This document shows positions 3,275 through 53,557 of a stretch of 64,000 nt of DNA, piece after piece. Within the stretch, counting starts at the first letter, position 1. Each line of letters begins with the position of its first letter. Source of the DNA: an uncultured Ignavibacteria bacterium (GTDB lineage: Bacteria; Zixibacteria; MSB-5A5; CAIYYT01); contig CAZFNN010000004.1 in assembly GCA_964520555.1 (NCBI GenBank), positions 128,134-192,133 of the forward strand, in the 5' to 3' direction. Both the position numbers and the translations under genes were made by a program. The notes below the pieces were generated by a model. The model was not told the origin of the DNA, did not search any database, and was given only the letters and a program-made list of their open reading frames with translations.

Positions 3275-3306
3275 TTGAACTTGCCCTCTTGGTCCCTTCG
3301 GAAATC

Positions 3307-4851
3307 CTAGCTGTAATCAGCGCAGTTGCACTCTTGCCCCGGCGGTGGTCCGCCGGCGAAAAAGTAATTGATCAGATAGACGGCGTCGGAAATCGAAAGA
3401 GAACCACTGCAATCAGCATCACCGGAACCAGGGTTGTGCGGAGTCGGTGGAGGACCGTTGGGACATCCTTCGCAGGGACCGAATATGTGGTCGATCAAAT
3501 AGACTGCATCGCTAATGTTGATTGCACCGCTACCGTCGGCATCGCCGACCTTCCAGGTGCAGATCGCGAACGTCTCCATATCCTGCGTGTATCCGGTGGC
3601 CTGATTGTCGGCGATGTCGTGCGCAACCACCTTGAGAATGCAGCTATCACAGGCCGGGCCGGTCACGACCCAGTCGAGGCAGTTCGTCATCTTCCTGGGA
3701 ACATTTTCAACAAGTGCTTCCGGGTACCCATCGCGACCATTGTGACGATCCAGATAGAGACTGACCATGGTGCTGGAATCGGCGCCCCAATCTCCGAGCC
3801 ACATGAATTGGACTGTGTCGCCACTGGAGTATCGCAGCGGCCACGGCAGATACCAGACGTCTGCCCAATACGGGCCTCCAGTAAAATACGCTCTGTAGAT
3901 ATGAGAGTCATTCTCGGGTGGCACTGTAATTGGCCAGGCATTCTCGAAATAATCAGGTCCCAAATACGTTCCGTCTGATCGAAGATGTGACCAATGATGA
4001 AAGTAGTACCAGTATCCGTTCAGGTAGAAACTATCATGAGCATACAAATCGTGCTGTTCGAAGATTGCCCATGTCCTGTATACTGGCGAGGGTAGCTCCA
4101 AGTCATCAACTTCGATTGTCCCGCCCTTTCCCTGAACATACTGGTTGCTGATTTCTGCAATACCCGCACCATCGCAATAACTTTTGAAGCCTCGATAAAT
4201 GGCTCCGGCTTCACTTCGCGCGTGAGTGTTGGCAGGATCCGCGAACAAATTCTCTTCGAGCGAGTCACTAAGAAACGATGCTTCAGTCAAGACGGCTATA
4301 CGCCTGTTACGAATGAGCACTGTCAGCCCACAGCTTTTTTTCAGCCCGCGTGCAATGTATGGATCGTCCGGCGCATCCCAATTCTCAAGAAGCCGCAGAT
4401 ATATTTTCTGCGCCATCAGTGAATCGACGTCACGCCATGAGCCGCCCAAGATTGTATCAGACATGCAATGCCATGCTTCTGTGCCCTGAGTGCTGTTGTG
4501 TGCGGTGTCGATGGAGTTGTGATGGGTTGAGATGAAGTACGCGTAGCCTTGCCCGTTGTTTCCCACGTTTGCCGAATCGGCTCTGTCGATGTTCTCAACA
4601 TATACGTCAGTAGACCGTGTCATGCCGACTTGAAACCACCCGCCATAGTCGAAATTAATCGTATCCTTGGCGGCAAGGGCGACCGTTAAGTTCACAGCCT
4701 TCTCATACAGCTTCCCATTAGCTCCCTTACAGCCTAAGGCACTGCCACCATGACCGGGATCTAATAGAATCGTGTTGTCTGCGAAAATTGAATTGGACAA
4801 TAGTAGGAGGATCAGTACAGACGCAATTATCAGTTCTGTTCGAGTTGACAT
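3307..4851 (-). CDS. Secreted N-acetylmuramoyl-L-alanine amidase (Amidase_3) with two C-terminal dockerin-type repeats
   Basis: Signal peptide, then the LLDPGHGG Amidase_3 zinc motif. The C-terminus has DADGSGAINISDAVYLIDHIF and DADCSGSLSISDAVYLINYFFAGG dockerin-I-like Ca-binding repeats. Confidence 0.75.
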   Translation of the reverse strand: MSTRTELIIASVLILLLLSNSIFADNTILLDPGHGGSALGCKGANGKLYEKAVNLTVALAAKDTINFDYGGWFQVGMTRSTDVYVENIDRADSANVGNNGQGYAYFISTHHNSIDTAHNSTQGTEAWHCMSDTILGGSWRDVDSLMAQKIYLRLLENWDAPDDPYIARGLKKSCGLTVLIRNRRIAVLTEASFLSDSLEENLFADPANTHARSEAGAIYRGFKSYCDGAGIAEISNQYVQGKGGTIEVDDLELPSPVYRTWAIFEQHDLYAHDSFYLNGYWYYFHHWSHLRSDGTYLGPDYFENAWPITVPPENDSHIYRAYFTGGPYWADVWYLPWPLRYSSGDTVQFMWLGDWGADSSTMVSLYLDRHNGRDGYPEALVENVPRKMTNCLDWVVTGPACDSCILKVVAHDIADNQATGYTQDMETFAICTWKVGDADGSGAINISDAVYLIDHIFGPCEGCPNGPPPTPHNPGSGDADCSGSLSISDAVYLINYFFAGGPPPGQECNCADYS

Positions 4852-22892: not shown

Positions 22893-23094
22893 GTGACCAG
22901 CAACAAATCACGCCGGCAATCCAGCCGCCGCGACTCGCCGATCGATAATACGCCCATTCCGGCAGGCCGTCAATCGCTATTTTCGTCGCCGCGTCGCGCC
23001 CGTCGCGTTTACGCTTTCTTCTTGCTCTTCGTAATTACGGTCGTTATTGTCAGATCGCAACGCCGCATCGCGTTGCCGTTTAGAGGAGAGATCA

Positions 23095-24612
23095 ATGACC
23101 GTTCCCAAACCGCGTTTGCCGCGCTTAGCTTACAATTGGATTAGTTCGCTCGGAGCGTTTATTGCGCTCGCCGTCGCGCTGGTGATCATCGTGATGCTGA
23201 TCATCAACTTCACGATGGAGCAAACCAGCGCCTACTTCGGCATCTTCCTCTACATGGTCCTGCCGGCCATTCTCATCTTCGGCCTCATCCTGATCCCGAT
23301 CGGCATGTTCCGCGAATGGCGCCGCTGGAAACGTGGCGAATCCTCCGAGTTGCCCAAGTGGCCGCTCGTCGATCTCAATAATCGGCGCCACCGCAATGCC
23401 ACCGCGATCTTTATCGTTGGCACGGTGCTGTTCTTCGCTATCTCCGCCGTGGGCAGCTACCAGGCTTACCACTATTCCGAGTCGGTCAAGTTCTGCGGCA
23501 CGACCTGCCATACCGTGATGGAACCGCAGTACACGGCTTACCAGGCGTCGCCCCACGCACGCGTCGCCTGCGTGGAATGCCATGTCGGCACCGGCGCCTC
23601 CTGGTACGCCAAATCCAAGCTCTCCGGCGCCTATCAGGTCTACGCCGTCATGGCCGATGTCTACCCGCGCCCCATTGCCACTCCGATTCGCGATCTGCGT
23701 CCGGCGCGCGAGACCTGCGAAGAGTGCCATTGGCCGGAGAAAACCTACGGTCAGGAACTGCGCACTTTCACGCACTACATGTACGACGATGACAACCCCA
23801 GATGGACGACCGACATGCGCATCATCACCGACACCGGTGAGCCGCACGCGGGGCAGAAAGCCGGCATCCATTGGCATATCAACCCTGACATCGCCATCGA
23901 ATACATCGCCCGCGACTACGGCCGCCAGGATATCCCCTGGGTCCGCGTGACCGAGAAATCGACCGGCACCGTCGCCGTCTACGAGGACGAATCGAATCCG
24001 CTGGATCAAGCGGCGCGCGACACGCTGGCCGTGCGCGTAATGGACTGCATCGACTGCCACAACCGCCCCAGCCACATTTATCGCTCGCCCGATTACGCCG
24101 TTGACCGCGCGCTTCAGTCCGGTTTCATCGATCCGACCTTGCCCGGGATCAAGGCACTGTCGGTCGAAACCATGGCGGCCGAATACGAAACCAAAGACGC
24201 TGCGCTGTCCGCCATCTCGACACGGATCAACGACCACTACGAAGACGTCGGACTCCTGGACGATCCGGCGCGGCGCGGCGCGGTCGACTCGGCGATCGTC
24301 GCAGTTCAACGGGCCTTTACCCAGAATATCTTCCCCTATATGAAGGCCCGCTGGGACGTCTATCCGAACAACATCGGCCACTTCAACGACATCGGCTGCA
24401 TGCGCTGCCATGCCGGTAACCACAAAGCCTCCGACGGCGCGGCAATTACGCACGATTGCTCCGCCTGCCATACGATTGTGGCGCAGGGTCTGGCCGGCGC
24501 CATGGAACGCGATTCCACCGGTCTCGGTCTCGAGTTCAAGCATCCCGTCGACATCGACGATGCCTGGAAGGAAACCGGCTGCTACGAATGTCATGCCGGC
24601 GTCCAGCCATAG
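23095..24612 (+). CDS. Inner-membrane multiheme (7 CxxCH) cytochrome c with N-terminal NapC/NirT-type quinol-dehydrogenase module (ImcH/CymA-like)
   Basis: Two N-terminal TM helices, then CGTTCH, CVECH, CEECH, CIDCH, CMRCH, CSACH, CYECH. RBS AGGAGAG lies 7 nt upstream of the ATG at 23095. Confidence 0.75.
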   Translation: MTVPKPRLPRLAYNWISSLGAFIALAVALVIIVMLIINFTMEQTSAYFGIFLYMVLPAILIFGLILIPIGMFREWRRWKRGESSELPKWPLVDLNNRRHRNATAIFIVGTVLFFAISAVGSYQAYHYSESVKFCGTTCHTVMEPQYTAYQASPHARVACVECHVGTGASWYAKSKLSGAYQVYAVMADVYPRPIATPIRDLRPARETCEECHWPEKTYGQELRTFTHYMYDDDNPRWTTDMRIITDTGEPHAGQKAGIHWHINPDIAIEYIARDYGRQDIPWVRVTEKSTGTVAVYEDESNPLDQAARDTLAVRVMDCIDCHNRPSHIYRSPDYAVDRALQSGFIDPTLPGIKALSVETMAAEYETKDAALSAISTRINDHYEDVGLLDDPARRGAVDSAIVAVQRAFTQNIFPYMKARWDVYPNNIGHFNDIGCMRCHAGNHKASDGAAITHDCSACHTIVAQGLAGAMERDSTGLGLEFKHPVDIDDAWKETGCYECHAGVQP

Positions 24613-24673
24613 CACCGCCGCCGCGACTCCCCGCCAGGCTCTGAGCACTCCTCCAACTCAGTAGTCATCTACC

Positions 24674-24701: not shown

Positions 24702-24763
24702 TTAGGCGATTATTGGATGCCACATACCATTGCTGCCGAGCTGAACCTACGATTGGAGGAGAC

Positions 24764-26236
24764 GTGAATCGCACCGTCATCGGGATACTCATCATTGCGT
24801 TGTTCATCTGCTTGCCGCTTGCCGTTCAAGCGAGTGACTTTGTCTTGGACAGCATTGCCACCTTCACCTATCCGAGTGCCGGCAACCTCGGCGGCTCCGA
24901 CTGCTGGGGTTGGAAAGCTCCGGACGGCACGCTCTACGGCTTGATGGGCGTACGCAGCGGAATCGCGGTTGTCAACGTCTCGGCCCGTCTGCCGGTGCAG
25001 GTTGTACCCGGTCCTCAGAACAGCTGTTCCGCCTACTGGCGCGACATCAAGACCTACCAGCACTACGCATACTGCACCTCCGAGTGCCTCGGCACCAATC
25101 AGGGCCTTATGATTATCGACCTGCAGTACCTGCCCGACAGTGTCCATTTTATGAAGTCGATCCCGGTGCATCCTTCCGGCGATGTGACCTCGCATAACCT
25201 CTCGATCGATACCCTCAACGGCTTCGCCTATCTCGAGGGTCGCAATCAGGCCGCCATGTCGATTCACGTCTTCAGTCTGGCCGACCCGGAAAACCCGGTC
25301 CACGTGCACAGCTTTGGCGATGCCATCGGCATTCACGACGTCCTTGCGACCGACGACACGATCTACGTCGCCGACGGCAATGCGCCCACCATCTCGATCT
25401 ACAACATGACTGTCAAGACCGCCCCGGCGCTGATCTCGCGCGTCACGATTCCCAGCGCCGGCTACGTGCACAATGTCTGGCCGACTGATGATCGTCAGCA
25501 CATGGTCACCACCGAAGAGACTACCGGCAAGACAATCAAGGTCTGGGACATATCCAACCTCAGCAACGTGCAGCTCGCGGGCAGCTTCCTCGGCAATTCC
25601 AACGTTGCCCACAACGTGCATTGCTGGGGCAATTTCGTCTACATCTCGCATTACGCCGCCGGTGTCGAGGTCTGGGACATTGCCACTCCGTCGACGCCGA
25701 CTGTCGTCGCCCGTTTCGACACCTGGTCGACCGCTTCCGGTTTCGATGGCTGCTGGGGCGCGTTCCCCTTTGCCGATTCCGGTTACGTTTACGGCTCAAA
25801 TATGAACGGCAAGTTCTTCATCCTGCAGTTGCGTGATACGACCGTGGTGGCTGACGACGATTCCGACGGTGTCGGCAACCCGACCGACAACTGCCCGCTC
25901 CTGGCCAATCCGCTCCAGGAGGACGCCGACCACGACGACATCGGTGATCTCTGCGATAACTGTCCCAACAACGCCAACCCCGGGCAGCAGGATTCCGACA
26001 ACGACGGTATCGGTGATGCCTGCGACGCGCTTTGCGGCGACTCCGACGGCTCTGCCAGTCTTTCAATCGCCGACGCTGTCTTTGTGATCAATTTCATCTT
26101 TGCCGGCGGTCCGGCGCCGAATCCGACGGATGCCGCCGACGTCAATTGCGACGGCAACGTCAACATTTCCGACGCCGTCTACTTGATCAATTTCATTTTT
26201 GTCGGTGGTATGAATCCCTGCGCCAACTGCTTGTAG
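24764..26236 (+). CDS. Secreted beta-propeller protein (LVIVD / choice-of-anchor-B-like) with thrombospondin-type-3 Asp-rich repeats and C-terminal dockerin-type repeats
   Basis: Signal peptide. Repeated VWDIS / VEVWDI propeller motifs. DSDGVGNPTDNCP..DADHDDIGDLCDNCPNNANPGQQDSDNDGIGDACD are TSP3 repeats. Two dockerin repeats (LSIADAVFVINFIFAGG, VNISDAVYLINFIFVGG). Start taken as GTG 24764 after GGAGGA; ATG 24713 is the alternative. Confidence 0.65.
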   Translation: MNRTVIGILIIALFICLPLAVQASDFVLDSIATFTYPSAGNLGGSDCWGWKAPDGTLYGLMGVRSGIAVVNVSARLPVQVVPGPQNSCSAYWRDIKTYQHYAYCTSECLGTNQGLMIIDLQYLPDSVHFMKSIPVHPSGDVTSHNLSIDTLNGFAYLEGRNQAAMSIHVFSLADPENPVHVHSFGDAIGIHDVLATDDTIYVADGNAPTISIYNMTVKTAPALISRVTIPSAGYVHNVWPTDDRQHMVTTEETTGKTIKVWDISNLSNVQLAGSFLGNSNVAHNVHCWGNFVYISHYAAGVEVWDIATPSTPTVVARFDTWSTASGFDGCWGAFPFADSGYVYGSNMNGKFFILQLRDTTVVADDDSDGVGNPTDNCPLLANPLQEDADHDDIGDLCDNCPNNANPGQQDSDNDGIGDACDALCGDSDGSASLSIADAVFVINFIFAGGPAPNPTDAADVNCDGNVNISDAVYLINFIFVGGMNPCANCL

Positions 26237-47502: not shown

Positions 47503-47550
47503 TTCATCCGATTATTTTTCGAGCACACAATCTATCGTGGAGACGTCCTC

Positions 47551-49317
47551 ATGTACAGGAGTTTGATTCTCTCTCTTTTCTGGATCGCCACCCTTGCCGG
47601 CGTCGCCGCCGCGCAGGAGTGGCTCACCGACTACGAAAAGTCCGGTTACGTTGAAACCCCCCGCTATCAGCAGACCGTCGACTTCTGCCGGAAGCTGGAT
47701 GACTACTCCCCGTATGCGCTCTTCACCGATTTCGGTACCTCGCCGCAGGGCCGCAAACTCCCGCTGCTGATCATTGACAAGGACCGTGAATTCGATCCCG
47801 CCGGCCCGCGGACTCAGGCCAAGGCAATCATCCTGATCCAGGGCGGTATCCACTCCGGTGAAATTGAAGGCAAAGATGCCGGCCTCACGTTGCTCCGCGA
47901 TTTTCTGATCTATAACAAGTTCTCCGATGCCTACGACAGCGTCGTGATCCTCTTCATCCCGATCTTCTCCGTCGATGCCCACGAGCGGTTCGGTCCCTCC
48001 AACCGCATCAACCAGAACGGCCCGCGCGAAATGGGTTGGCGCACTACCGCCACCAATCTCAACCTCAACCGCGATTTCATGAAAGCTGATGCCCCCGAGA
48101 TGCAGGCCTGGCTCGCCCTCTTCAACAAATGGCGCCCCGATTTCCTCACCGACATTCACACGACCGACGGCGCCGATTACCAGTACACTATCAGCTATGC
48201 GATCGAAACTCATCCCGGCGTTGCTCCGCCGCTTTCGCGCTGGATCGATAGACAATTCCTCCCGTTTATCAAGCAAAAGATGACCGAGTCGCAGTTTCCG
48301 CTGATCCCCTATGTCCAGCCGCTCCACGGTCACGACTACGCGCGCGGCATCGGCACCTACGCCTTCCCGCCGCGCTTTTCCAACGGCTACGGCGCTATCC
48401 AGAACCGCCCGTTCATGCTGATCGAAACTCACATGCTCAAACCGTATCGCGACCGCGTCCGCTCAACTTACGAGTTTCTGCGTCATCTGATCCGCTATTG
48501 CAGCGACAACGCCACCGCCCTCAAGCGCGCTGTCACCGAAAGCGATCGTCTATCCGCTGAAACGCTTGTCGGCAGCTATCTCCCGATCGACTTCAGGCGC
48601 ACCAAGGACAGCACGATGATCGATTTCTTCGGCGTCGAATATCGCTACGAGGATTCCCCCATCTCCGGCAGCAAGAAAGTCGTCTGGGGGCAGCGGCGCC
48701 GGACCTACAAACTGCCATTGTTCGACCAACAGGCCACACGCGACTCGGTGCTGATTCCGTATGCCTACCTGATTCCACAAGAGTGGTCGGATGTTATCGC
48801 CCGCTTGCAATGGCACGGTATCGCCGTCAATCGCCTCCGCGAGGCAATCGAATTGCCGGTCGAACTCTACCGCCTGACCGATCGCAATTACGATTCTGTG
48901 TCCTTCGAAGGCCGCTTGCGCGTCGGCTGTCACACGCAGCTCTTCCGGCAGACTCAGACCTTCCCCGCCGGTACAGCGGTGGTGGTGATGAATCAGCGCA
49001 CCAGTCGCGTCGCCGCGCACCTGTTGGAACCGAAAGCCCCCGATTCTTTCTTGAGCTGGGGATTCTTCAGCGCCGTATTTGAGCAGAAAGAATACGCCGA
49101 GGGCTACATTATCGAGCAGATCGCCCCGCAGATGTTGGAGGCCGATACGCTGCTTCGCCTCGAGTTTGAAACGCGGCTGGCCTCCGACTCTGCCTTCGCA
49201 GCCAGTCCTGAGCAGCGACTCGATTTCTTTTACCAACGTTCCCCTTACTGGGACGAGCGCCTGAACCTCTATCCGGTCGCGCGCCTGGTCGAGAAGCGTG
49301 CTCTGCCGCTGGAGTGA
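47551..49317 (+). CDS. M14-family zinc carboxypeptidase (secreted)
   Basis: Signal peptide. IQGGIHSGEIEG (HxxE zinc ligands) and a downstream His. 588 aa. GGAGA RBS upstream of the ATG at 47551. Confidence 0.7.
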   Translation: MYRSLILSLFWIATLAGVAAAQEWLTDYEKSGYVETPRYQQTVDFCRKLDDYSPYALFTDFGTSPQGRKLPLLIIDKDREFDPAGPRTQAKAIILIQGGIHSGEIEGKDAGLTLLRDFLIYNKFSDAYDSVVILFIPIFSVDAHERFGPSNRINQNGPREMGWRTTATNLNLNRDFMKADAPEMQAWLALFNKWRPDFLTDIHTTDGADYQYTISYAIETHPGVAPPLSRWIDRQFLPFIKQKMTESQFPLIPYVQPLHGHDYARGIGTYAFPPRFSNGYGAIQNRPFMLIETHMLKPYRDRVRSTYEFLRHLIRYCSDNATALKRAVTESDRLSAETLVGSYLPIDFRRTKDSTMIDFFGVEYRYEDSPISGSKKVVWGQRRRTYKLPLFDQQATRDSVLIPYAYLIPQEWSDVIARLQWHGIAVNRLREAIELPVELYRLTDRNYDSVSFEGRLRVGCHTQLFRQTQTFPAGTAVVVMNQRTSRVAAHLLEPKAPDSFLSWGFFSAVFEQKEYAEGYIIEQIAPQMLEADTLLRLEFETRLASDSAFAASPEQRLDFFYQRSPYWDERLNLYPVARLVEKRALPLE

Positions 49318-49335
49318 CTCCAGCGCGTTTTCTCC

Positions 49336-49380: not shown

Positions 49381-49440
49381 CGTCCCGCCGTAACTCCGCC
49401 GCGCGGGGTGTGACCCGACGGTCAGCTCAACCACTCCAGA

Positions 49441-49482
49441 ACCACCGACAACAAATAACCTCCGGGTCGGTTGACCCGGAGG
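49441..49482 (-). terminator. Rho-independent terminator of the porin-cytochrome operon
   Basis: cctccgggtc-ggtt-gacccggagg is a perfect 10-bp stem. On the minus strand it is followed by TTATTTGTTGTCGG. Confidence 0.6.
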
Positions 49483-49514
49483 CTATTGATGATTGCCCTA
49501 AGACGTCGGCTAAA

Positions 49515-50660
49515 TCAGTTGTCCAACTCCGCCAGTCCGTTCTTGCTGACGGCCCCGGGCGGGTTGTCGTTCAAGTACTCGATCGAACGGTTTAGCATCG
49601 CTTCAAAGAACTTCGCGTTGTGCATGCCCCGCGAACGATCCTCTTTGTAGATTACCCAGTTGTATAGCGCGCCGGCAACGGCTACTGGAAGCGTGGCCGT
49701 TATTTGGGCGAAGTCTTCACGTAATGCACCCTGAGCCACCAAAAGGGTTCCCAGCGAGTCGTGCAGCAGGTCAAACTCGGTTTGAATGCCCTCGGTAATG
49801 CCATCGCCGTTAAGATCCCGCAATTCCCAGTCGTCGAAATCGGTAATGGCCGGCTGACCTTGCGGTTGTGGACCATACTCGTCAGCCTCGTTGTGACAGC
49901 CTTGAGTCGCGCAAGTTCCAACCAGAGTGTATTCAGTCCCGTCATGAGCCTCAAAGCGCATGTTGAAACTGTGCCCGCCGACATTGTAGCCGTCATGTTG
50001 CGAGGGATTGCCCATGTGGCAGCCGACACAAGCATCGCGAACAATACTTGCGTGCTCAGTGCTTGGATAGGCAGCGCCCCCAAAGGTGTACGCGTGAGTT
50101 CCTTGAACCATATCGCCTTGCGGCCCGTGGTGCGGGCCAAAACGATTATTGACACCCTTGGTCGGACCAGCGCCAAGGTCAGCCGTCATCGAAGTGCGGG
50201 TGTGGTGACACTGCACGCACAAATTCGCCTGGCCATGATCAAACACAACTCCGTTCTTCAACGTGTACGGCTCATCGATACGCAGCGTCAGATCGCCTCG
50301 TTCATGCGGAGCATGGCACGTGAAACAATGAATCGAACTCACGGTCGATTGGGCCAGCGAGTCTTCTTCACCAGTGCCGATCCAATCCAGGAAGCCCTGG
50401 TGGTTATGGCACTGCTGGCAATCGGAGCCGGGGCGATTGGTGTAGTCAATGCTCGTGCCCGAAGCATGCAGCGAATTTTCCCACTCGCCGCGCGCTTGCA
50501 GCAACGCGCCGTCAAAGCTGGTCTCGCCGTGGCAGGCAAAACAACCGTTCAGGCTCTGGTCGTTGCTGGCAATTTCGTTAACGATTTTGCGCTCGCATCC
50601 TGCGATCAACGCCATCGCCAGAACGAGGGCGACAATGATTAGTGCTTTCAGGATCCTCAT
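49515..50660 (-). CDS. Outer-membrane lipoprotein multiheme cytochrome c (5 CxxCH + 1 CX4CH), MtrC/OmcB-role candidate
   Basis: Lipobox LIAGC. CFACH, CQQCH, CFTCH, CVQCH, CVGCH and C-terminal CATQGCH. AGGAGG RBS 5 nt upstream. Last gene of the three-gene operon. Confidence 0.75.
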   Translation of the reverse strand: MRILKALIIVALVLAMALIAGCERKIVNEIASNDQSLNGCFACHGETSFDGALLQARGEWENSLHASGTSIDYTNRPGSDCQQCHNHQGFLDWIGTGEEDSLAQSTVSSIHCFTCHAPHERGDLTLRIDEPYTLKNGVVFDHGQANLCVQCHHTRTSMTADLGAGPTKGVNNRFGPHHGPQGDMVQGTHAYTFGGAAYPSTEHASIVRDACVGCHMGNPSQHDGYNVGGHSFNMRFEAHDGTEYTLVGTCATQGCHNEADEYGPQPQGQPAITDFDDWELRDLNGDGITEGIQTEFDLLHDSLGTLLVAQGALREDFAQITATLPVAVAGALYNWVIYKEDRSRGMHNAKFFEAMLNRSIEYLNDNPPGAVSKNGLAELDN

Positions 50661-50669
50661 ACTAACCTC

Positions 50670-52220
50670 CTAAAAGGATAATCCTTTAATCAAACTAACT
50701 TCTACCACATTGCCGGTGTAGTAATCCTCGTACACCGACAGATCATCGAAATTGTAAGCATTATATTCGACTTCGCAGCGGTAGTCCTGATAGAACCGCA
50801 GCGCCGCCGCAATCCGAATATTGAAGTGCTCGACGTTGAGATCGCGCTTGCTCTTGTAATAGAGCGCGCCGAAGCTCACCGTCCCGCCCTTGTACTCCTG
50901 GCTGGTGATATCGCCGGAGACCAGATGATCCTGGAACTCGAAGTTCCGGGTCAGGTTTTCGTAGGTCCCCGCCGAGTGCACGTACGCCGCGTTCAGCGTG
51001 GCATACTCCGTCGCGGTAATCACCGCATCAACGGCATAGCGGTACATGTCGGCCTTGGTGCCGAGCTGGTCGTTCTTGCGAATCACGCTCGTCATCTTGT
51101 AGCCGAATGTGCCGATCTTCTCGGGACGATACTTCACCGAAAACGCGTGCCGGTTGCGTTCCTCGTCCCCCAGCAGCCGCACGCCGTCTTCCACTTCTTC
51201 CTTGCGATTACCAAACTGGTAACGGACTTCCACCTCCGGCACCGGCTTGCCCCAGCCGCTGAAGAACAGCGAATTGCCACGCACTTCGTCCTCGAAATCG
51301 TCGTTGACGTCGTACTGATATCCGACCGTCAGGCCGAACCGGCGCAGGTAGTCATACGAGGCATACCCCGCGTGCGTCATGTTGTCGGTCGCGACGAAAT
51401 CGGAATCCGATGACGTGCGGTCGAGGATGCCGATATACTTCAGGCTGATATTCTGCGGCAGATTCAGCACGCCGCCGCCGTAGCCGCGGTTGTTGCTGAT
51501 CGTGAAATCACTCTGGTCAAACTTCGTCTCGAAGTGCCGGAAGCCGCCGATCAACTTGAAGAAATCATACTTCGGGCAGGCAAGAATGCCGCTGAACCGG
51601 TATTCTGCCCGCTTCTGGTCGCGCTGAACATCGTTGTTGTCGGTGTACTGATCGCCGCGGTACTCACCCAGCACCATCGAACCCTTATAATTGAACTGCG
51701 CGCCGAAGTTGTAGTAGGTGCGCTTGTAGTCGACATTGACCTCGGTCGGATCCGGCTTCGGATTGAACAGGTCGGTCGTCGTGCCGGTTCGTTCCATCAT
51801 CAAAAGTCCGCCGAATAGCGTCACATACTCCACCGGCGTCACGCGCAAGTTGGCATGTTCCTGATGCCGCCGCGTGAAGCTGGTACCGTTGAAATTGTAG
51901 ATCCGCCGGAACTGATCATGACCCACCCGCAAATCGAACTGCCCCGGCTTGGCCAGCGACGCGCTCAGATTGCGATTGTTCATGATGATGTTCTTCAGAT
52001 CCGCCCGCACCTGCATGCCATTGTCAAAGCGATAACGGAAGCCGTCGAGCGAAATCGTCGGACCTTCGTACAGATTGAATGTCGGATGGTGAACCGACTG
52101 GTTGCCCTCTTCATCCAGATAGACGTAGCCGACGCGCACCTCGCCGGAGCCGGTAGCCGCAACGGCCACTGCCGCCAGCATCAGGAGGGCGCCCAACAGA
52201 AACGATAACTTCAGTTTCAT
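50670..52220 (-). CDS. Outer-membrane beta-barrel protein (MtrB/OmbB-role porin of a porin-cytochrome complex)
   Basis: Signal peptide MKLKLSFLLGALLMLAAVAVA. Alternating aromatic/hydrophilic strands throughout and a C-terminal ...LIKGLSF. No heme sites. AAGGAGGGAG RBS. Sits between the two cytochrome genes with 9-12-nt gaps. Confidence 0.7.
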   Translation of the reverse strand: MKLKLSFLLGALLMLAAVAVAATGSGEVRVGYVYLDEEGNQSVHHPTFNLYEGPTISLDGFRYRFDNGMQVRADLKNIIMNNRNLSASLAKPGQFDLRVGHDQFRRIYNFNGTSFTRRHQEHANLRVTPVEYVTLFGGLLMMERTGTTTDLFNPKPDPTEVNVDYKRTYYNFGAQFNYKGSMVLGEYRGDQYTDNNDVQRDQKRAEYRFSGILACPKYDFFKLIGGFRHFETKFDQSDFTISNNRGYGGGVLNLPQNISLKYIGILDRTSSDSDFVATDNMTHAGYASYDYLRRFGLTVGYQYDVNDDFEDEVRGNSLFFSGWGKPVPEVEVRYQFGNRKEEVEDGVRLLGDEERNRHAFSVKYRPEKIGTFGYKMTSVIRKNDQLGTKADMYRYAVDAVITATEYATLNAAYVHSAGTYENLTRNFEFQDHLVSGDITSQEYKGGTVSFGALYYKSKRDLNVEHFNIRIAAALRFYQDYRCEVEYNAYNFDDLSVYEDYYTGNVVEVSLIKGLSF

Positions 52221-52231
52221 TCTCTCCCTCC

Positions 52232-53185
52232 TTAGTGCTTCAGGTTGTCGTGACAACCGGAGGCGTAGCAGTTGGCGTAAAGGGTGGTCGTCAGCATCGG
52301 GTCAAGAAACAGCTTGTTGTCGTTCGAACCGTGGAATTGCGTGTGGCAATTCACGCAGTCGATCTTGACCGCCATGCCGGAATGGGCAACGCGATGGCCG
52401 GGCGGCACACCGTGGCACTGAATGCAGACACCGTTGCCGGGCTGCAACAGGAGGCGCTCATTCGGCGAACCGTGCGGACTGTGGCACTCCACGCAGCCGC
52501 CGCCGTCGACCAGGTGGTTGTAGTTGACCGGATGCTCGTAGACGTGCGGCCCCGCCACATCCGAGTGGCAGTTCTGGCACGTCCAGTCGAACCCCTTGAC
52601 CAACTGCATATCCTGGCGGCTATTCATCGGGTGGCAGTCGGCACACGCCACGCTGCCTTCGTGCAGCGGATGCGCCGAGCGCGCGCTGAACTGGGCGCCG
52701 ACCGTTTGATGGCAGCCGAGACAGTAATTTTCGCTGTCATCCTTCACCAGCGCCGCATTCTCATTCCCGTGAATCGAATGGCAACTTGCACAATCCAGCC
52801 CGGCGCGGCCGTGCGGATCGGTCGTCACCATCAGAGCCTGATGCTCGTTCTGGTGGCACGAGGCGCAGGCATTCGCCTGCTCGGCAAACGGCAGCTTGCT
52901 TGGCACCACCGGCTTGTTGGCTTCCGGATCATCCAAGTGCGTCTCATAGCCGCCGTGACACCCGACACAGGAAACCGTGATGCCGCGAGCACCCGCTGCG
53001 GGAAGCGCGTGTCTTGATCCGAGAAGATTGTCCGCCATGTCCTGATGACACTCGAGGCAAGCCTCATTCGACGCACTCGTGGTTCCCTCCGCGGTCAGCG
53101 GAACGGTTGCCAGGAGCGCACCGAACAAGCCCAGCAGCGATATGACGATCAGGATGGGGGCGGGTTTCTTCAGTCTTCTATTCAT
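52232..53185 (-). CDS. Periplasmic multiheme cytochrome c (10 CxxCH + 1 CX4CH), MtrA/DmsE/OmaB-like
   Basis: 317 aa with signal peptide. CLECH, CVGCH, CASCH, CASCH, CLGCH, CADCH, CQNCH, CVECH, CIQCH, CVNCH and CYASGCH. Spacing of about 25-30 aa per heme is typical of MtrA. Confidence 0.8.
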   Translation of the reverse strand: MNRRLKKPAPILIVISLLGLFGALLATVPLTAEGTTSASNEACLECHQDMADNLLGSRHALPAAGARGITVSCVGCHGGYETHLDDPEANKPVVPSKLPFAEQANACASCHQNEHQALMVTTDPHGRAGLDCASCHSIHGNENAALVKDDSENYCLGCHQTVGAQFSARSAHPLHEGSVACADCHPMNSRQDMQLVKGFDWTCQNCHSDVAGPHVYEHPVNYNHLVDGGGCVECHSPHGSPNERLLLQPGNGVCIQCHGVPPGHRVAHSGMAVKIDCVNCHTQFHGSNDNKLFLDPMLTTTLYANCYASGCHDNLKH

Positions 53186-53247
53186 ATTAACCCCGTTGGT
53201 AAGTAAAAAAGTCCATTTTCATGAAACAGATTCGCGAACGTCCTGTA

Positions 53248-53263
53248 TGTGAAATCTGTCACA
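53248..53263. promoter_or_regulatory. CRP/FNR-family (CRP-type) binding site, perfect TGTGA-N6-TCACA
   Basis: TGTGAAATCTGTCACA. Centred about 70 nt upstream of the operon ATG (53185), so about -41 if the TSS is about 30 nt upstream (class II position). Confidence 0.55.
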
Positions 53264-53366
53264 AAGTTCTCTTGTTTATGATCTGCAATAAAGTCGGTGC
53301 GACGAGATCGTGTCAATAAAAAAGTATTATGAAATTGTCGGCTTTATCCATCTTGTTGTATTTTAT

Positions 53367-53382
53367 CGTGAAAACTATCACA
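53367..53382. promoter_or_regulatory. Second CRP-type site (CGTGA-N6-TCACA)
   Basis: CGTGAAAACTATCACA, 119 bp upstream of site 1, same half-site spacing. The flanks of the two sites are similar (…GTGAAAnCTnTCACAAAnTT…). Confidence 0.45.
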
Positions 53383-53557
53383 AACTTTAGAAATAAGACC
53401 TCAATAATTCGACATATTCATCGAGATTTCTGCTAATTCCGCTCGGAATTTACGATCGAATTAGTTGGAATTATTGGTTATTCCGCAAATGCCCCGCGCA
53501 ATTGCCCCGCTTTGGTGCAAGTTCATCTCGTCACAAGCTACATATCGGGAGACTTAA

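Follow-up and report, generated by a model that had tools for sequence, protein, structure and literature searches.

A three-gene operon for a probable Mtr-type electron conduit with an NrfA/OcwA-fold lipoprotein in an uncultured Ignavibacteria bacterium

Operon organization and transcription signals

The 64,000-nucleotide stretch of DNA analysed here (contig CAZFNN010000004.1 of an uncultured Ignavibacteria bacterium, hereafter the window) carries an operon of three genes, g1, g2, and g3, which probably encodes an Mtr-type electron conduit across the outer membrane with g3 in place of MtrC. As in a first-pass annotation of this DNA, three co-directional minus-strand open reading frames (ORFs) were found within 53185..49515 from the ORF list and reading of the sequence. 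The first, g1 (52232..53185, 317 aa), encodes a periplasmic or barrel-inserted cytochrome of the MtrA/DmsE type, the second, g2 (50670..52220, 516 aa), a predicted compact MtrB-type outer-membrane barrel of 26 strands, and the third, g3 (49515..50660, 381 aa), a hexaheme lipoprotein with an NrfA/OcwA-like fold. The core of the first-pass annotation, a porin-cytochrome conduit, is retained here, because g1 is homologous to MtrA, g2 has the MtrB fold, the fold class of g3 could be assigned, all three proteins bear export signals, and the genes form an operon with tight and conserved synteny.

The g1 stop codon (TAA at 52232) is separated from the g2 start (ATG at 52220) by an 11-nt spacer holding AAGGAGGGAG, and the g2 stop codon (TAG at 50670) from the g3 start (ATG at 50660) by a 9-nt spacer holding TAGGAGGT. 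This spacing agrees with the 9-12 nt annotated before and argues for co-transcription of the three genes. The two spacer elements provide the Shine-Dalgarno sequences of g2 and g3, but g1 is preceded by a weak GGGG-type sequence only, so that the AGGAGG-type ribosome-binding site once ascribed to every gene does not extend to g1. The length of the barrel also required revision: the 528 aa reported initially correspond to a TTG-initiated maximal ORF with a 25-nt overlap with g1, whereas gene calls on contigs with the identical gene, homologues of 514-533 aa, and a near-invariant Met1 place the start at ATG 52220 and give 516 aa.

Upstream of g1 lies an AT-rich leader of 372 nt (53186..53557, minus strand) with a GC content of 38%, compared with 58% for the window, which is the probable promoter region; a consensus promoter scan revealed no sigma-70 consensus promoter upstream of g1. 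At the other end, a terminator-like hairpin with a U-rich tail (49449..49487, minus strand) begins 28 nt past the g3 stop codon, consisting of a G+C-rich stem of 10 perfectly paired bp (15 bp counting its A-U extension), the loop AACC, and the tail UUAUUUGUUG. The 75-nt region 49440-49514 was predicted to fold at -36.8 kcal/mol (z = -5.39), with none of 200 shuffled sequences as stable, in keeping with the annotation of an own terminator for the operon. A simple consensus terminator scan did not list this hairpin, which folding supports, probably because the T-tract is taken up when the stem is extended by G-U/A-U pairs. On the other side, the convergent gene of an M14 peptidase (about 47548..49317, plus strand) has its own terminator-like hairpin at 49307..49325 (plus strand), and the two units are therefore separated by back-to-back terminators within 197 nt.

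A decaheme MtrA-type cytochrome with an additional C-terminal motif

The g1 product starts with a Sec-type signal peptide with a likely cleavage site at about LTA/EG and contains ten CXXCH motifs between residues 43 and 277 as well as one CX4CH motif, i.e., 11 motifs in total, in line with the roughly 11-heme MtrA-like protein annotated at first. It matched the DmsE/MtrA decaheme model TIGR03508 with an E value of 7.3e-48 over profile positions 3-257 of 258, with the DmsE family as its best NCBIfam match, and the solved MtrA chain (PDB 6r2q_A) with an E value of 9e-28, where residues 32-289 aligned to chain positions 55-325 and covered all ten heme sites. Together with its position 11 nt from an MtrB-type barrel gene, these matches identify g1 as a true MtrA/DmsE homologue.

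The eleventh motif, C306-YASG-C311-H312 (CYASGCH, residues 306-312; 52250..52270, minus strand), which emerged from the motif count, sits in a tail of about 28 residues beyond residue 289, where the alignment to solved MtrA stops, and this tail is absent from Shewanella MtrA. A C-terminal Cys-Xn-Cys-His was kept in all 41 MtrA-like partners from related loci, as CX4CH in 35, as CXCH in five (loci L012, L022, L043, L044, and L059), and as CXXCH in one (L023). The sole surface-exposed part of MtrA in MtrCAB is its C-terminal heme, A10, which touches MtrC (PMC7198977), suggesting that the extra motif of g1 would lie at the outward end of the wire, where it may bind an eleventh heme.

A compact barrel with the MtrB fold

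The g2 protein has a signal peptide (AVA/AT), a C-terminal Phe, and no heme motif at all, confirming the heme-free barrel of the first-pass annotation. Its AlphaFold2 (AF2) model, computed like that of g3 without hemes, showed a mean predicted local distance difference test (pLDDT) score of 89.7, 26 strands, and inter-strand loops of 13 residues or fewer throughout. In the model, the loop joining strands 1 and 2 also forms a helix of three residues, and strands 2-4 are short, both of which have been described for MtrB, a barrel of 26 antiparallel strands (PMC7198977). The closest structural neighbour of the model was MtrB, rather than a TonB receptor or a substrate porin, and g2 is accordingly modelled with the MtrB fold; its small size is due to the missing long surface loops of MtrB and not to fewer strands. 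Among 56 g2 relatives, 16 matched the MtrB_PioB family at E < 0.01 (best 6.9e-7), and no competing family appeared. Searching 1.84 billion representatives with the g2 profile yielded 178 relatives, and the full-length proteins among the best 150 of these were 504-557 aa long. Cysteines occur in g2 only at positions 215 and 482, so that it lacks the N-terminal CXXC motif of MtrB from metal-reducing Gammaproteobacteria.

The first-pass annotation had taken the small size of the barrel as a sign of a distinct family of porin-cytochrome (Pcc) conduits. A Geobacter-type Pcc (OmaB-OmbB-OmcB) or a separate new Pcc family would fit the 516 aa of g2, which are nearer in length to Pcc porins than to MtrB, and FeGenie has reported Geobacter-like porin-cytochrome operons in Zixibacteria. 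Nevertheless, such an assignment is extremely improbable, considering that Pcc porins are predicted to have 18-22 trans-outer-membrane motifs (PMC4245776) compared with the 26 modelled strands of g2, that the best structural match of g2 is MtrB and its sole family-level sequence signal is MtrB_PioB, and that g1 is homologous to MtrA while Pcc and Mtr proteins are unrelated (PMC4245776).

A hexaheme lipoprotein of the NrfA/OcwA group

The g3 protein carries a lipobox, L18-I-A-G-C22 (LIAGC; 50595..50609, minus strand), in which G21 and C22 were invariant in 56 aligned family members, and the low pLDDT of residues 21-36 fits a flexible tether. It contains five CXXCH motifs and one CX4CH motif; all six sites were invariant in the 56 relatives, although the sixth is CXXCH in most of them. 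The lipobox-anchored hexaheme cytochrome of the first-pass annotation is hence confirmed, and so are the export signals of the operon as a whole. The assumption that the third protein is an outer cytochrome of the MtrC/OmcB type has to be replaced, because its fold is that of NrfA and OcwA, and its location on the cell surface is a likelihood rather than an observation.

As a single sequence, g3 gave nothing significant in the PDB, while the g3 family profile matched the octaheme nitrite reductase (ONR) 8rv0 (E = 1.4e-5), NrfA 2j7a (E = 1.5e-4), TvNiR, and OcwA 6i5b (E = 0.07). This similarity lies mainly in residues ~186-343, comprising the last two hemes and helices with an 'EDRSxGxHN' signature. 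The AF2 model is largely helical, with a globular heme domain, a C-terminal three-helix bundle, and no beta-barrel domain, and OcwA and OmhA (6qvm) were among its closest structural relatives. NrfA, ONR, and OcwA constitute a homologous group of multiheme cytochromes (PMC9250108), and g3, which shares their fold with the C-terminal three-helix bundle, belongs to the NrfA/OcwA homologous group. OcwA and OmhA have been described as cell-surface cytochromes in extracellular electron transfer by Gram-positive bacteria, OcwA being a terminal reductase (PMC6703420).

Membership of g3 in the MtrC/OmcA/MtrF/UndA proteins was rejected. Their lipoprotein signal is found in g3 (LIAGC), but g3 has six heme motifs where these proteins have ten or eleven hemes in two pentaheme domains with flanking beta-barrel domains, and it has no beta-barrel domain and neither a hidden Markov model (HMM) match nor a structural match to these families. 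A sub-threshold match of the Pfam MtrC/MtrF domain II/IV model to the N-terminal half of g3 was read as a generic similarity in pentaheme packing.

The relationship to NrfA raises the question of an enzymatic role, in which an MtrAB-type module, as in DmsEFAB, would feed g3 as a surface enzyme of the NrfA family with an open-coordination heme, reducing or oxidizing not minerals but an N- or S-compound that is soluble or permeates poorly, such as nitrite, hydroxylamine, or polysulfide. In support, g3 is colinear with NrfA and ONR, with its motif 2 weakly aligned to the catalytic CXXCK of ONR and its motifs 3-6 to NrfA hemes 2-5. The Pfam family Cytochrom_C552 was matched by 20 of the 56 g3 relatives, some of which are annotated as nitrite reductase. 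A conserved histidine pair, His177-His178 (GPHHGPQ; H177 invariant, H178 in at least 90% of relatives), recalls by analogy the paired distal histidines at the open-coordination hemes of OcwA and OmhA. Furthermore, OcwA itself reduces nitrite and hydroxylamine (PMC6703420), and there are known cases of MtrB homologues that work with catalytic subunits outside the cell (e.g., DmsF with DmsAB). On the other hand, no CXXCK motif was present in g3, its invariant histidines are enough for six bis-His hemes, and the N-terminal alignments were individually non-significant; the profile of the g3 N-terminus behind them gave, besides spurious HLA hits, colinear matches that all fell short of significance. 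Nitrite turnover by OcwA is also very slow, at 1 per min (PMC6703420), and an NrfA/OcwA fold therefore does not imply an enzyme function. A dedicated enzyme system of this kind is thus regarded as improbable for g3.

Conservation of the gene triad

The full triad in the same order was found in all seven loci of species-representative genomes in which the barrel was detected, at 46-84% identity. In addition, 80 metagenome loci were retrieved by alignment to the g3 family, at 33-69% identity. Where the flanking sequence was sufficient, 36 of 39 metagenome loci had the barrel gene as the immediate upstream neighbour of g3, and 30 of 30 had an MtrA-like gene in the corresponding position before the barrel. 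This survey of relatives, proposed with the first-pass annotation, showed the triad in nearly all informative loci, and the arrangement is far beyond chance. Based on the labels of the records, the named relatives mostly belong to candidate division Zixibacteria, a member of the FCB (Fibrobacteres-Chlorobi-Bacteroidetes) group, and the nearest metagenome-assembled genomes (MAGs) are labelled 'uncultured Ignavibacteria', in agreement with the initial placement of the genome in the FCB group. Public records currently list members of the barrel and g3 families as 'hypothetical protein' or, wrongly, as 'nitrite reductase'.

Among the exceptions, the barrel is located farther upstream from g3 in L093 and L073. 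In L093, an extra lipoprotein multiheme cytochrome of about 370 aa (3643-4845, lipobox LLTGC) lies between the barrel and the g3 homologue, forming a four-gene variant. In the high-GC contig L070, the g3 homologue (3278-4399) lacks a lipobox and starts with an ordinary signal peptide. Neither a barrel gene nor an MtrA gene adjoins it, and it lies instead beside V-type ATPase genes and a gene fusion of the UbiA-like/cytochrome c type, which indicates that soluble proteins with the g3 fold also occur apart from the conduit.

Proteins identical to g3, and identical to g2 over the compared residues 26-516, were encoded in four contigs (L008-L011) from independent sequencing runs (Logan SRR14787580, SRR14787579, SRR6928283, and SRR31809896), indicating that this organism or a near-clone is present in several public datasets.

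Potential inner-membrane partners

Outside the operon, a candidate inner-membrane partner was detected at 23047..24612 (plus strand), encoding a membrane-anchored, seven-heme NrfH/NapC-like protein of 521 aa with a likely start near ATG 23095, which matched TIGR03153 with an E value of 6.5e-13. It is the orthologue of a gene that directly adjoins the triad in relatives, its product being 57% identical to that of the downstream neighbour in L013 and 77% identical to that of the upstream neighbour in L005. An NrfH-like gene adjoins the triad in at least ten related loci, and lies 25 kb away here. In L013, the triad is followed by genes for a NapC/NirT-type cytochrome, a multiheme cytochrome, a cytochrome b, and a Rieske protein. 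Rieske and cytochrome b genes stand beside the triad in at least nine related loci, i.e., L013 (8639-11441), L034, L044, L063, L071, L082, L086, L088, and L090, usually together with a multiheme cytochrome of about 422 aa; no Rieske/cytochrome b pair was found in the window.

The NrfH-like gene is overlapped by a 507-aa ORF (23125..24648, minus strand) that looks like a shadow ORF. Just downstream (24713..26236, plus strand) lies the gene of a 507-aa secreted protein, which appears on reading to have a repeat-rich N-terminus, Asp-rich repeats of the calcium-binding type, and a dockerin-like C-terminus.

Proposed conduit and its weighing

The operon is best explained by an Mtr-type conduit in which the NrfH-like cytochrome (23047..24612) and/or, in relatives, a Rieske/cytochrome b complex would oxidize quinol at the inner membrane, and electrons would pass through the periplasm and enter g1 at its N-terminal hemes. 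With ten (or possibly 11) hemes, g1 would be threaded through g2 as an insulated heme wire across the outer membrane, and electrons would leave at its exposed C-terminal end, possibly via the eleventh heme, to g3. The latter would be lipid-anchored, most likely on the outside of the cell where the barrel ends in a rim of short loops, and could pass electrons to extracellular acceptors or take them from donors, including Fe(III)/Mn(IV) minerals, shuttles, and possibly Fe(II).

Several observations weigh against this proposal. The TIGR03508 score of g1 (163.3 bits) is below the curated cut-off of 192.2, and the C-terminal motif is CXCH instead of CX4CH in five relatives. CXCH is not, to our knowledge, an established heme c attachment site, and the extra site may consequently not always bind heme. 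For g2, the match to MtrB_PioB (PF11854) reached 21.9 bits against a cut-off of 23 and covered the N-terminal 120 residues only, and that to NCBIfam TIGR03509 reached 22.5 bits against a cut-off of 240. No PDB chain, MtrB included, was retrieved at E <= 10 with either the single g2 sequence or its 56-member family profile, and no barrel of about 700 aa occurred among the best 150 of the 178 profile matches. As a result, sequence comparison alone cannot place g2, and its homology to MtrB rests on fold and context. The g3 model is moderately confident (pLDDT 74), with non-significant Foldseek matches, and no surface-export signal was recognizable after the lipobox Cys (C-E-R-K). Besides, the triad in the window is not adjacent to any quinol-oxidizing gene, and the multihemes of a related cluster from the Zixibacteria genome RBG-1 were predicted to be periplasmic or in the inner membrane (PMC3903129).

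The last points bear on a two-component arrangement similar to MtoAB/PioAB, in which g1 and g2 alone would span the outer membrane and g3 would be a periplasm-facing lipoprotein, in the inner leaflet of the outer membrane or in the inner membrane, shuttling electrons between g1 and the inner membrane for Fe(II) oxidation or the reduction of soluble iron. The missing export signal of g3 and the predicted locations of the RBG-1 multihemes are in favour of this arrangement, as is the lack in g2 of the N-terminal CXXC of MtrB from metal reducers. The frequent Rieske/cytochrome b neighbours would suit uphill or downhill electron flow in iron oxidizers. MtrAB alone can transfer electrons (PMC4245776), and Castelle et al. 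favoured iron oxidation in RBG-1 because no known extracellular cytochrome was found (PMC3903129). In contrast, the closest structural relatives of g3 include the cell-surface cytochromes OcwA and OmhA. The g3 gene is locked directly downstream of the barrel, where some variants add a second lipoprotein cytochrome, and a barrel-locked lipoprotein is the pattern of the extracellular partners MtrC and DmsAB. The extra motif of g1 is moreover conserved at the end that faces outward in MtrA. On balance, the two-component arrangement is considered unlikely, if still a serious contender, and the three-part conduit with g3 on the surface is preferred.

Going further, it is conceivable, though on the doubtful side, that a Gram-negative FCB lineage independently combined an MtrAB wire with a cell-surface cytochrome whose NrfA/OcwA fold is the one employed by Gram-positive iron reducers, and that the MtrA wire was lengthened by an eleventh heme at its outward end to reach its partner across a nearly loopless barrel. 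If this were true and one heme of g3 had kept its open coordination, g3 would be the first extracellular reductase of the NrfA family to be coupled to a porin, acting on minerals as well as N-oxyanions.

Of the routes by which electrons cross a bacterial outer membrane, Mtr-type conduits are understood best; they are used to recognize iron cycling in metagenomes and supply parts for bioelectronic engineering. The main value of the present operon lies in a corrected reading of such clusters in metagenomes and in a minimal natural conduit. Surveys can misclassify the variant: the finding of MtrCAB in three phyla only (PMC8805035), as well as the 2013 inference of iron oxidation in Zixibacteria, which relied on no outer cytochrome being recognized, would change if the partner were a surface cytochrome other than MtrC. 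The MtrAB module would then be more modular than assumed, pairing with MtrC, DmsAB, and a cytochrome of the OcwA/NrfA fold, and such a partner would connect the ways in which Gram-positive and Gram-negative bacteria have solved extracellular electron transfer. In addition, a loop-free 26-strand barrel of 516 aa with a 317-aa wire would offer a natural minimal chassis for structural work and for synthetic transmembrane wires.

Comparison with known systems

Zixibacteria have been known to possess MtrA and MtrB homologues since 2013 (PMC3903129), with further reports since then (PMC9769843, PMC7005843), and the view in the first-pass annotation that such conduits are poorly characterized in the FCB group was therefore overstated for MtrAB. 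A survey that required MtrC placed MtrCAB in only three phyla, all outside the FCB group (PMC8805035). In the open-access papers that were searched, no description was found of a compact 26-strand barrel family without loops, of a conserved extra C-terminal motif on the MtrA partner, or of an OcwA/NrfA-fold lipoprotein as a third gene closely tied to the barrel.

The closest published counterpart is the MtrAB cluster of RBG-1 (PMC3903129), which the gene series of L013 matches, and the triad and this cluster are probably the same system. No extracellular cytochrome homologue was reported for RBG-1 and Fe(II) oxidation was favoured (PMC3903129), whereas the third gene here encodes a lipoprotein of the OcwA/NrfA fold. 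Compared with the RBG-1-type cluster, the triad stands alone in the window, with the NrfH-like gene 25 kb off.

Relative to MtrCAB of Shewanella (PDB 6R2Q), g2 is about 130 residues shorter than the 649-residue chain 6r2q_B, and has neither the length of MtrB (about 650-800 aa) nor its long extracellular loops. The partner is a six-heme protein of the NrfA/OcwA fold instead of the decaheme MtrC with its two beta-barrel domains, g1 bears the extra C-terminal Cys-Xn-Cys-His, and g2 falls below the MtrB_PioB cut-offs. The first-pass annotation had equated the architecture with that of Shewanella MtrCAB and Geobacter OmaB-OmbB-OmcB, which is right for the composition but not for the gene order. 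The order is A-B-partner here and mtrC-mtrA-mtrB in Shewanella. In Geobacter, it is ombB-omaB-omcB (PMC4245776).

The Geobacter Pcc (OmbB-OmaB-OmcB) follows the same three-part logic of a porin, a periplasmic cytochrome, and a lipoprotein cytochrome, but its proteins are unrelated, with 18-22-strand porins and cytochromes of 8 and 12 hemes. MtoAB and PioAB resemble the operon in an MtrA-type decaheme cytochrome, an MtrB-type barrel, and the lack of an MtrC homologue, and differ in that their clusters have no barrel-locked lipoprotein cytochrome and their barrels are large. DmsEFAB of Shewanella likewise combines an MtrA-like/MtrB-like module with a lipoprotein partner other than MtrC outside the cell, although that partner is the molybdoenzyme DmsAB and not a multiheme cytochrome.

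With regard to g3, OcwA of Thermincola potens (6I5B) has nine hemes and OmhA of C. ferrireducens (6QVM) eleven, compared with six in g3. Both operate in Gram-positive cell walls or S-layers without a porin, whereas g3 is a lipoprotein that would be coupled to an MtrAB module. Unlike NrfA and octaheme nitrite reductase, g3 has no CXXCK motif, and it possesses one additional N-terminal heme, a lipid anchor, and a place in a porin-cytochrome operon.

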